Under the pieces are notes generated by a model. The model saw nothing but the letters and a program-made list of their open reading frames with translations, made no database searches and was not told where the DNA came from. The position numbers and the translations under genes were made by a program. DNA of 64,000 nucleotides from an uncultured Pelagibacteraceae bacterium (GTDB lineage: Bacteria; Pseudomonadota; Alphaproteobacteria; Pelagibacterales; Pelagibacteraceae): NCBI GenBank assembly GCA_902568465.1, contig CACFQR010000001.1, positions 100,525 through 164,524 on the forward strand, read 5' to 3'. Below, one piece after another: positions 6,625-56,398 of this stretch (the stretch's first letter is position 1; the number at the start of each line of letters is the position of its first letter).

Positions 6625-7122
6625 ATGAACGGTTTATTAAAAACACTAGTCAAACCTGACTGGGATGATAGTCCAAAAAGATCTGAAATTTTACATGCAG
6701 CAAATCTACTTCAGGTCGGAGAATTCCAATTAATACAACTTGCTTATAAAGTTTGGTACAATAAAGAACTGCCAGAAGAAAGGATAAATAAAATTTTCAA
6801 AGAATATATGATTTCAGGAATAATTCCGATTTGGGTAACCTATTATGCAAGAGATATAATAAAAATGGACGATGCCAAAGTTCTTGATAGCTTTAACGAA
6901 AGATATCACGTTTATGATCATGAATTTGGAAAACATATAGATAATGAAAACCAAAGAAGAAGACGTGGAATATTTTATTCAATGATCATTGGGTTTGTGT
7001 TTATAGCAAGTCATTATATGGCTGCTAACTATGTTAGTATAGATGAGCCCGCAGGTTTTTATCCACCATATGTTGAAAGAAAAGTAGTTTATCCTGAGCT
7101 TTATAAAAAAGAAAATAAGTAA
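6625..7122 (+). CDS. Hypothetical protein with one C-terminal TM segment
   Basis: 165-aa ORF 6 nt after acs, with an RRRRG plus hydrophobic helix. I do not recognise a family. Confidence 0.5.
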   Translation: MNGLLKTLVKPDWDDSPKRSEILHAANLLQVGEFQLIQLAYKVWYNKELPEERINKIFKEYMISGIIPIWVTYYARDIIKMDDAKVLDSFNERYHVYDHEFGKHIDNENQRRRRGIFYSMIIGFVFIASHYMAANYVSIDEPAGFYPPYVERKVVYPELYKKENK

Positions 7123-7325
7123 TGTTTGATTTTATTCCACAGGAATATGAAAAAATTGTAAATATTATTTTTTTAGTTATTACAGCTTTAATTGCAAAAC
7201 ATGGGATAACATATAGAAAAGAAGATGGTGAAAGAGATTTTGTAAGATTATTATTTGGATGTATTGCTGCTACTTATTTTTTTTTGGTACTTTTCAAAGA
7301 TGTTCTCGGACTTATAAGTTTTTAA
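7122..7325 (+). CDS. Small hypothetical membrane protein (2 TM)
   Basis: 67-aa ORF coupled to the upstream gene (TAATG junction), with two hydrophobic helices. Confidence 0.4.
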   Translation: MFDFIPQEYEKIVNIIFLVITALIAKHGITYRKEDGERDFVRLLFGCIAATYFFLVLFKDVLGLISF

Positions 7326-54721: not shown

Positions 54722-55360
54722 ATGAATAATTTAACTATATCAATATTCAAAAACAAAATCTTGCTAGAAATTATTAAAGAAATAAAGTTATTTTCAAGAT
54801 TTAAAATCAAATATTATGAAGACCTAGATTTGTGTATTAAAGAATCTAAAAATAATTCACAAATACTTATTATTTTTTTTGATAAGGGTGACCAAAAAAA
54901 TTATAAAAAATTAAAGGAAGTGAATTTTCCAATTATTATAGTGAACAAAGTTTCTAATCCAAAAAATATTTTTTCAGAGGATTTAGTAGAATATACAAAT
55001 ATACCATTTAAAATTTTTGATTTGCATAAAAAAATCATATTACTTTTTGCAAGGTATGAGTTTAAAAAAAGTTCATTAATTAATTTAAATGGATATACAG
55101 TAGATAAAAATGAACGCAAAATTAAAAAAAATAAAATTGAACTTCAGCTTACAGAAAAAGAAATTAACTTCCTTATTTTATTTAGCGAAAATAAAAAACC
55201 TTTAACCAGAGATTTTTTCCTTAAAACAGTGTGGAATTATTCTGCACAAACAGACACTCATACAATTGAGACACACATTCATCGATTAAGAAAAAAAATT
55301 TTTGAAAAATTTAATGACAATAATTTTATAAAAAATAATGAAAAAGGTTATTACATTTGA
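54722..55360 (+). CDS. OmpR/PhoB-type winged-helix transcription regulator with a degenerate receiver-like N-terminal domain
   Basis: The C-terminal trans_reg_C pattern (LTEKEINFLILF...PLTRDFFLKTVWN......THTIETHIHRLRKKI). The N-terminal ~110 aa are receiver-sized but lack the acidic DD pocket. Confidence 0.7.
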   Translation: MNNLTISIFKNKILLEIIKEIKLFSRFKIKYYEDLDLCIKESKNNSQILIIFFDKGDQKNYKKLKEVNFPIIIVNKVSNPKNIFSEDLVEYTNIPFKIFDLHKKIILLFARYEFKKSSLINLNGYTVDKNERKIKKNKIELQLTEKEINFLILFSENKKPLTRDFFLKTVWNYSAQTDTHTIETHIHRLRKKIFEKFNDNNFIKNNEKGYYI

Positions 55361-55482
55361 AAAAGAAAACTAGAAATTATATAGCAAGAGATTTATTTTC
55401 TACAAAGTATAAAAAAAGAATAGTAAAACCCAAAAAGGGGAAAGGAAGTTTCAAAAGAAGAAAGAAAGTTAGTTTAATCTAG
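55357..55482 (+). CDS. Candidate small ORF (41 aa) with an ArfA-like KKGKGS motif (possible alternative ribosome-rescue factor)
   Basis: Hand translation gives M(TTG)KKKTRNYIARDLFSTKYKKRIVKPKKGKGSFKRRKKVSLI*. The TTG start overlaps the upstream stop (TTGA). The ORF fills the only long (108 nt) gap between convergent genes in this window. It is not in the ORF track, presumably because it is below the track's size cutoff. Confidence 0.35.
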   Translation: MKKKTRNYIARDLFSTKYKKRIVKPKKGKGSFKRRKKVSLI

Positions 55483-56398
55483 CCCCAATTTTTTGAATTA
55501 TTTTCGAGGACATTTCTGTTCCTTTTTCTAAACTTTCTCTTAATGAAAGTTTATTAACATAACCGTGTAAAAAACCTGCAGCAAAGAGGTCACCAGCGCC
55601 CGTTAAATCTACAATTTTTAAATTTTTTTTACTTTCACACTCTACAATTTCATTTTTTAGAATTGCAATACTTCCTTTTTCACCGCGCGTAATAACGATT
55701 AGCTTTTCTAATTGCTTACCAAATGTAATTACTTCATCAAAAGTTTTAGCATTTATTAATGATAAAATTTCTTGTTCATTGGCAAAAGTAATATTTAAAT
55801 TATTTTTGACCAAATTAAGAAAGTGAGGTTTATGTCTCTCTACACAAAATAAATCTGAAAGAGACATTGCGGCTTTATTTGAGTTTTTAATTGCTTTATC
55901 AAAAGCTTTTTTAGGATCTCCCTCATCCCACAAATAACCTTCTAAAAAAATCATTTCACTATTTTTGACCGAATTAATATCAACATCATTCTCATTTATT
56001 TTTCCTGCCGTTCCTAAAAAGGTGCACATAGTTCTTTCAGAGTCAGGTGTAATTAATATTAAGCAAGTCCCAGTAGGTAGCTTTTCTTTTTTTTTTGAGT
56101 AAAAATATTCCACTTTTTCTTTTTTTAATCCATCCTCATACTTTTGGCCAAGATCGTCATCATTGACTTTTCCAATAAATCCAACTTTATTTCCAAGCTG
56201 AGAGAGGCCAGCAATAGAATTAGCAACTGATCCACCTGAAATTGTTTCCTCAATCTTTAAGCTTGATAATAATTTTTTAAATTCTGTCTCATCAACAAGT
56301 TTCATAGTGCTTTTGGTTAGTCCGTTTTCTTTTATAAAGCCGTCTTCTACTTTACAAATAACATCTACTATTGCATTGCCAATTCCTAGAATTTTCAT
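55469..56398 (-). CDS. PfkB-family carbohydrate/nucleoside kinase (adenosine-kinase-like)
   Basis: GGSVANS and DLTGAGDLFAAGFL motifs. Confidence 0.85.
   Translation of the reverse strand: MKILGIGNAIVDVICKVEDGFIKENGLTKSTMKLVDETEFKKLLSSLKIEETISGGSVANSIAGLSQLGNKVGFIGKVNDDDLGQKYEDGLKKEKVEYFYSKKKEKLPTGTCLILITPDSERTMCTFLGTAGKINENDVDINSVKNSEMIFLEGYLWDEGDPKKAFDKAIKNSNKAAMSLSDLFCVERHKPHFLNLVKNNLNITFANEQEILSLINAKTFDEVITFGKQLEKLIVITRGEKGSIAILKNEIVECESKKNLKIVDLTGAGDLFAAGFLHGYVNKLSLRESLEKGTEMSSKIIQKIGARLN

Follow-up and report, generated by a model that had tools for sequence, protein, structure and literature searches.

The locus described here raises the question of whether a short open reading frame (ORF), lying between a regulator gene and a kinase gene of an uncultured member of the Pelagibacteraceae (SAR11), encodes a ribosome-rescue factor of the ArfA family in a class of bacteria outside the published range of this family. 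The analysed stretch of DNA (hereafter the window) comprises 64,000 nt of contig CACFQR010000001.1 (assembly GCA_902568465.1, positions 100,525 to 164,524) and has a G+C content of 29.6%; of the genomes fetched, those most closely related to it are single-cell genomes of Pelagibacteraceae (SAR11), in which the kinase flanking the ORF is up to 92% identical. The arfA-like coding sequence (55357..55482, plus strand) has 41 codons followed by TAG, begins with TTG and encodes the product MKKKTRNYIARDLFSTKYKKRIVKPKKGKGSFKRRKKVSLI; its designation is based on the ORF listing, a Pfam ArfA match above the gathering score and conservation. Reviews restrict ArfA to a subset of Beta- and Gammaproteobacteria, and a 2024 survey of 15,259 genomes, which added 10 species of the Bacillus subtilis group to the range of arfA, recorded the gene in 0 of 2,376 Alphaproteobacteria. 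The evidence presented below shows that an ArfA homologue is conserved across the Pelagibacteraceae and kept under purifying selection, which contradicts this published distribution.

A sequence-only reading of the window had proposed the ArfA likeness from a motif, and profile searches bore this out. The window peptide matched the Pfam ArfA model PF03889 (gathering cut-off of 25.5 bits) with 27.9 bits and an E-value of 1.6e-6, no other Pfam family matched it at E-values up to 10, and none of the composition controls (8 shuffles, the reversed peptide and 2 other Lys-rich ORFs of the window) gave an ArfA match. Its PDB matches (phmmer) were ArfA chains from ribosome complexes and nothing else. 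A SAR11-type profile built from 22 sequences was aligned by hhalign to E. coli ArfA (comparison sequence taken from the annotated MG1655 record, NC_000913) with a probability of 89%, an E-value of 2.2e-6 and no gaps. The conserved core (residues 6-37; 55372..55467, plus strand) corresponds, ungapped, to residues 13-44 of E. coli ArfA according to hhalign, phmmer and the residue table, and it includes the KKGKGSF motif (residues 26-32; 55432..55452, plus strand), which is equivalent to E. coli K33-Y39.

Relatives were sampled as 80 species-level Pelagibacteraceae loci, fetched with the PfkB kinase gene as an anchor. The arfA frame was intact in 69 of them, which constitute the host sequence set used throughout. 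A start codon is located 23-25 codons upstream of KKGKGS in 58 of the 69 loci, with a likely ATG 27-29 codons upstream in six more; most clades use ATG, some use GTG, and the clade of the window uses TTG. The ratio of non-synonymous to synonymous substitution rates (dN/dS, Nei-Gojobori) was calculated for the 31-codon ungapped core in all three frames. In frame it was 0.13, with no stops, compared with 1.40 and 1.18 (and 269 and 109 stops) in the other two frames; with the motif codons removed and only unsaturated pairs retained, it was 0.135 in frame versus 2.36 and 0.73 off frame. In-frame estimates span 0.13 to 0.21, and both the frame conservation and the Ka/Ks below 1 that the sequence-only reading had named as marks of a real gene were thus found. 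Gene callers had independently called arfA (36 amino acids) in metagenome contigs that share this gene order. A search of 5.8 billion proteins returned about 185 relatives of 31-55 amino acids, nearly all with PF03889, and 469 clusters were retrieved when 1.84 billion cluster representatives were searched exhaustively with a profile; the exact window peptide is absent from the protein collection searched.

These results bear on the simplest rival explanation, i.e. that the ORF arose by chance in an A-rich spacer and is Lys-rich by accident, and that the spacer is truly non-coding (a terminator or a regulatory RNA). Such ORFs are common in DNA of 30% G+C: the window contains 650 stop-to-stop segments of 30-90 amino acids, so an open frame of this size is by itself not significant. 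The TTG start, the weak Shine-Dalgarno-like element and the NCBIfam scan of the window peptide, which gave no match, would also suit a chance frame. Against it stand codon-level purifying selection confined to the arfA frame, the conserved start position and the failure of the shuffled peptides to match ArfA. Signs of a non-coding element were lacking as well: a terminator scan revealed no terminator-like site in or after the window arfA ORF, an Rfam scan of the whole window returned one tRNA only and nothing at arfA, and no excess folding was detected at the window arfA (z = -0.6 and -1.26). Among the 650 segments the arfA ORF has the highest Lys+Arg fraction (0.43), and in the six-frame translation of the window KGKG occurs in only one other place, within a long ORF. 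Taken together, purifying selection in frame, the conserved start position and gene-caller support lead us to reject the chance-ORF explanation, which we regard as highly implausible.

How the predicted protein might act can be judged from the well-characterized E. coli ArfA. The basic C-terminal region of the latter fills the empty mRNA tunnel, where K33-Y39 lie, residues 21-30 are placed in the A site, and the N-terminal minidomain folds upon opening of release factor 2 (RF2); a hydrophobic patch of Leu19, Leu24 and Phe25 contacts Trp319 of RF2, Ala18 packs on Ile11 (the A18T substitution is inactivating), and the protein is active if truncated at Asn47 and inactive if shorter (PMC5378476). 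Only 46-48 residues of E. coli ArfA are ordered on the ribosome, which, together with the activity of the form ending at N47, makes the length of the SAR11 peptide plausible.

The residue-level comparison (E. coli numbering) covered the 69 host sequences and a viral set of 80, these being the best 80 of 169 IMG/VR viral contigs with a relative of the peptide. KKGKGS(F/Y)KRKK was invariant or nearly so in both sets, as were N14, L20, K33-S38 and R41; I16, R28, V29 and K31 were conserved, F25 was replaced by Tyr or retained as Phe, Y39 was Phe in the host sequences, and Pro23 was present in most phage forms and few host forms. The tail that follows KRKKK comprises 0 to 13 unconserved residues, and many orthologues stop directly after KRKKK at 35 amino acids (e.g. 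MKKKNLIAKDLRSPKYRSRIVKPKKGKGSFKRKKR), so that the family represents a minimal form of 35-41 amino acids. Judged by these alignments, the putative tunnel-binding half is fully ArfA-like, while the putative release-factor-activating half is reduced and partly changed.

We therefore favour, as the likely reading, a minimal ArfA-family alternative ribosome-rescue factor. In the proposed mechanism, the basic C-terminal half (KPKKGKGSFKRRKK) would bind the empty mRNA tunnel, like residues 31-44 of E. coli ArfA, and the short N-terminal half (N-x-I-A-x-D-L ... K-Y-x-x-R-I-V) would be placed in the decoding centre and recruit a class I release factor. The recruited factor, assumed by homology to be RF2, would then hydrolyse the peptidyl-tRNA. 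Of the 67 long ORFs of the window, 16 end in TGA, and hence the organism should have RF2; the window itself contains no release-factor or ArfB genes (GGQ motif). The protein would be made from an ordinary stop-terminated message, presumably constitutively and probably at a low level, through TTGA coupling to the regulator gene and, in the clade of the window, the TTG start. Its activity would be limited by the substrate (ribosomes with an empty tunnel) and not by tagging of its own product by transfer-messenger RNA (tmRNA). Ribosome binding, release-factor recruitment, coupling and constitutive expression are all properties that we infer from comparison with known factors and from gene layout.

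Several observations count against this reading. Eleven of the 80 loci have no arfA at the kinase position, and the gene may therefore not be universal in the Pelagibacteraceae. The match is limited to the C-terminal two-thirds of the PF03889 model: E. coli ArfA matches positions 2-43 and the SAR11 forms match from position 12, 17 or 20 to 42, so that no orthologue tested matches positions 1-11 and the window peptide does not match positions 1-19. Scores of SAR11-type orthologues against the model were 22.9, 25.0, 27.7, 27.9 and 33.3 bits (89.5 bits for E. coli ArfA), and the two lowest are under the gathering score. Only 4 to 7 residues precede the N14 equivalent in SAR11 forms, and residues 2-12 of the E. 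coli minidomain (including Ile11, Thr7 and Lys8) are mostly without counterpart. Two of the three residues of the RF2-contacting patch are charged, L19 being replaced by Asp or Glu and L24 by an invariant Lys, although L20 persists, as does F25 in the form of Tyr; at the position of Ala18, both the host and the viral set have Lys or Arg. Finally, the 35-residue forms end at the K44 equivalent, three residues short of N47, the shortest active truncation of E. coli ArfA.

The loss of most of the minidomain and the replacement of two-thirds of the RF2 patch by invariant charged residues would also be expected if the protein were an ArfA-derived tunnel binder with a different partner or partners, e.g. 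both RF1 and RF2, as in the case of ArfT of Francisella tularensis, or if it did not activate a release factor at all. The small size, normal stop codon and absence of a hairpin recall ArfT, and in phage homologues unrelated sequences extend the same core at the N- and C-termini. The sequence, however, matches ArfA and not the KGG-type ArfT, no other Pfam family is matched, and the decoding-centre positions of ArfA (N14, I16, L20, the aromatic residue 25, R28 and V29) are kept, as is Pro23 in the majority of phage forms. We consider this alternative, in either form, unlikely. On balance, the window ORF encodes a true ArfA homologue, though a reduced variant of the family.

A further question is how such a gene would be controlled. 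In E. coli, a stem-loop in the 3' coding region of arfA causes termination or RNase III cleavage and thereby yields a non-stop mRNA, and ArfA accumulates only if tmRNA is overwhelmed. The sequence-only reading had advised looking for 3' ends of this kind at the window gene, but such regulation found no support in the sequence. Folding was compared with that of shuffled sequences at 67 loci, with E. coli arfA as a positive control; the E. coli control region was clearly recovered (z = -3.99, a hairpin of about 20 bp), whereas no conserved hairpin was found across the 67 loci (mean z of -0.07, with one locus below -2). Since the conserved residues reach the stop codon, there is no room for a hairpin, and, as far as the sequence allows one to judge, classic tmRNA control via a non-stop mRNA appears to be absent.

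An arfA under canonical tmRNA control might still obtain its non-stop mRNA in another way, by an RNase III cut of a duplex with the kinase transcript or by 3' exonuclease trimming. In 68 of the 69 loci the stop codons of arfA and of the convergent gene are -36 to +10 nt apart, so the convergent transcripts must overlap, and an antisense role has been demonstrated for the overlap between the 3' coding sequence of E. coli arfA and the 3' untranslated region of mscL. However, overlapping or abutting ends are typical of nearly all convergent pairs in the window, and the arfA-kinase overlap therefore reflects a general trait of the genome rather than one of arfA. Moreover, no conserved structure was seen, and a cut before the stop codon would remove tunnel-binding residues in the 35-residue forms. 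Canonical control of this type thus seems very improbable. The idea that the kinase transcript, being convergent, exerts antisense control as a special feature of the locus was set aside as unspecific, given how widespread such overlaps are in the window. As a separate observation, predicted folds contain a 9-bp A+U-rich hairpin (AAACUUUCU...AGAAAGUUU-like; 55529-55553, plus strand) in the kinase coding region, about 50 nt past the arfA stop; no U-run follows it, and it does not stand out statistically.

The gap between the regulator gene and the kinase gene is 108 nt, and the claim that a TTG-to-TAG frame fills it proved accurate in its coordinates and overlaps. The TTG (55357-55359) shares bases with the TGA stop of the regulator gene, forming a TTGA start/stop overlap (55357..55360, plus strand), and the TAG (55480-55482, plus strand) lies within the 3' end of the PfkB-family kinase gene (55469-56398, minus strand; Pfam PfkB), a convergent neighbour which is not part of the proposed system. 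The variable C-terminal tail, VSLI, together with the TAG (55468..55482, plus strand), covers the last 14 nt of the kinase gene. TTG is the sole possible start in this frame, as the sequence-only reading had cautioned in pointing to the lack of an ATG. Its second caveat, the lack of a Shine-Dalgarno sequence, is roughly right in that nothing strong was found, although a possible weak Shine-Dalgarno-like AAGG, recognised from sequence only, is located 9 nt upstream of the TTG (55344..55347, plus strand). This AAGG belongs also to conserved Lys-Gly codons of the regulator, and a GG from conserved Gly-Tyr codons of the regulator is found at the same distance in nearly all loci; a Shine-Dalgarno role is therefore inseparable from coding constraint.

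The gene directly upstream (54722..55360, plus strand) encodes an OmpR/PhoB-family winged-helix regulator of 212 amino acids, recognised by the Pfam model Trans_reg_C and by PDB response-regulator matches; its N-terminus is receiver-like and divergent, and no Pfam model matches it. The stop of the regulator gene and the start of arfA share a 4-nt NTGA overlap (ATGA, GTGA or TTGA) in 39 of the 69 loci, overlap by 1 nt in 13 and abut in 4. In nine loci arfA is located away from the kinase, yet the regulator ends exactly at the arfA start, while the 11 loci without arfA next to the kinase are also missing the regulator (one of them is a contig end, and the other 10 have a coding-like sequence, common to them, beside the 3' end of the kinase gene). 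Because the regulator is always directly upstream of arfA and both are absent together, the two constitute a conserved two-gene unit, and the overlap of start and stop codons suggests that translation of arfA may be coupled to that of the regulator. Three database proteins (P0171, P0157 and P0174) join the end of the regulator to arfA in a single frame, probably through a frameshift, an assembly error or a gene-calling artefact.

The compactness of the window, which had been part of the original argument for the gene, was confirmed with a crude ORF caller: of 11 convergent junctions listed, 9 overlap or are at most 13 nt apart. The other open gap (7122/7322) is filled by a 67-amino-acid hydrophobic ORF with an ATG start (MFDFIPQEYEKIVNIIFLVITALIAKHG...; 7122-7325, plus strand), and the arfA junction is thus the only convergent one left open by large ORFs. 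The first base of the 67-amino-acid ORF is also the last of the preceding gene's stop codon, its far end shares 4 nt with the convergent gene, and its product is probably a small membrane protein.

Homologues of the window peptide are also present in phages. The 169 IMG/VR viral contigs, some of which, if short, could be host fragments, encode relatives with the same core, NPxAK(E/D)(V/L)RTPKYKPR(V/I)VKPKKGKGSFKR, and these pelagiphage forms are nearer to the SAR11 host form than E. coli ArfA is. Of the 80 best viral sequences, 18 are extended at the N-terminus by about 25 residues (PGKWDGKSR..ND.Y...FDRIF), and several other viral forms end in a recurring ...(D/E)(D/E)GWSGIV tail. An OmpR-family regulator was found beside the arfA-like gene in none of the 80 viral loci. 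One of the homologues is gp30 of Pelagibacter phage HTVC027P (record MN698241; L161:15768-15944, minus strand), whose gene adjoins that of the small terminase subunit and is labelled "hypothetical protein" in GenBank; a 2025 transcriptome paper reports an ArfA domain in gp30 and its transcription in SAR11 strain HTCC1062 under infection. A tblastn search of the GenBank phage collection with the peptide gave no match, probably due to masking of the Lys-rich query by the low-complexity filter. On a 78-kb IMG/VR contig (L119:3974 onward), an ORF of about 170 amino acids begins with the ArfA-like core and continues into an unrelated C-terminal region.

How these findings relate to the published distribution depends partly on the search methods. 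SAR11-type orthologues straddle the Pfam cut-off, so surveys that use this cut-off under-count or miss them; the 2024 survey was performed at the nucleotide level with nhmmer, and either the straddling of the cut-off or the DNA-level search probably explains its null result for Alphaproteobacteria. Table S1 of that survey scores Ca. Pelagibacter ubique HTCC1040 as smpB+, ssrA+, arfB-, arfA- and rqcH-, and the presence of smpB and ssrA together with the lack of arfB and rqcH is consistent with a role of the SAR11 protein as a backup to tmRNA. The expectation that an ArfA in an alphaproteobacterium would be new held only in part: the literature regards ArfA as absent from the class, and no publication discussing a host SAR11 ArfA was found, but automatic annotation has already named Pelagibacteraceae relatives ArfA in GenBank (HIO51621.1 and MDC0205234.1) and IMG, and at the level of database labels this is not a discovery.

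If the protein is active, SAR11 bacteria gain a backup rescue route and the published range of ArfA is too narrow. It would also be a natural minimal ArfA, without the parts deemed important for opening RF2 and without the non-stop control circuit, and, since a 35-residue peptide can be synthesised, it offers a simple test case for establishing which ArfA residues are needed. The pelagiphage relatives suggest that marine phages and their hosts interact at the level of ribosome rescue. More speculatively, SAR11 bacteria and their phages may share a distinct ArfA subfamily of about 35 amino acids, which would activate a release factor without the minidomain, with a charged surface replacing the RF2 patch; in the hosts it would be constitutive, stop-terminated, regulator-coupled and, in what are the most abundant bacteria of the ocean, the only backup to tmRNA, while the pelagiphage copies would keep ribosomes free during the degradation of host and phage mRNAs. 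We offer this combined scenario as a tentative possibility that is more doubtful than the assignment to a minimal ArfA-family rescue factor.

Among known rescue factors, ArfT of F. tularensis offers the nearest functional parallel and resembles the SAR11 peptide in size (40 amino acids in ArfT), in its basic C-terminal segment, in its normal stop codon and in having been missed by annotation. ArfT is not controlled by mRNA truncation, has been demonstrated to use RF1 or RF2, is thought to bind the tunnel with its basic C-terminal segment, and serves as a backup to tmRNA in a small Francisella genome without ArfB. Unlike ArfT, a member of the KGG-repeat family with the motif KKGGSTNKK, the SAR11 peptide has KKGKGSF and matches PF03889 only; membership in the ArfT/KGG-repeat group was therefore rejected, as the KGG-type motif is not present and the only Pfam match is ArfA. 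BrfA of Bacillus subtilis is likewise a small rescue factor, which is RF2-dependent and binds the empty tunnel, but, going by its published description, it has no detectable sequence relationship to the SAR11 peptide and, like E. coli ArfA, is made from a non-stop mRNA.

E. coli ArfA (YhdL) is a homologous counterpart, from which the SAR11 form differs in length (35-41 amino acids versus 72 encoded and about 55 in the mature protein), lacking about 6-9 N-terminal residues and the hydrophobic C-terminal extension. Unlike E. coli arfA, the SAR11 gene ends in a normal stop codon, lacks a hairpin for RNase III or termination, and begins with a start codon that overlaps the upstream stop. As in E. 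coli, where the regulator gene upstream is zntR, the gene follows a regulator gene and is arranged tail-to-tail with an overlapping convergent gene. In E. coli K-12 (NC_000913 3438431-3439130; L162:1932-2631), arfA and zntR are on the same strand and arfA overlaps the convergent mscL by 4 nt; as the two layouts are built from unrelated neighbours, their match may be a coincidence. At the protein level, the two forms share an identical KKGKGS, a basic tail, N14, I16, L20, an aromatic residue at position 25, R28 and V29.

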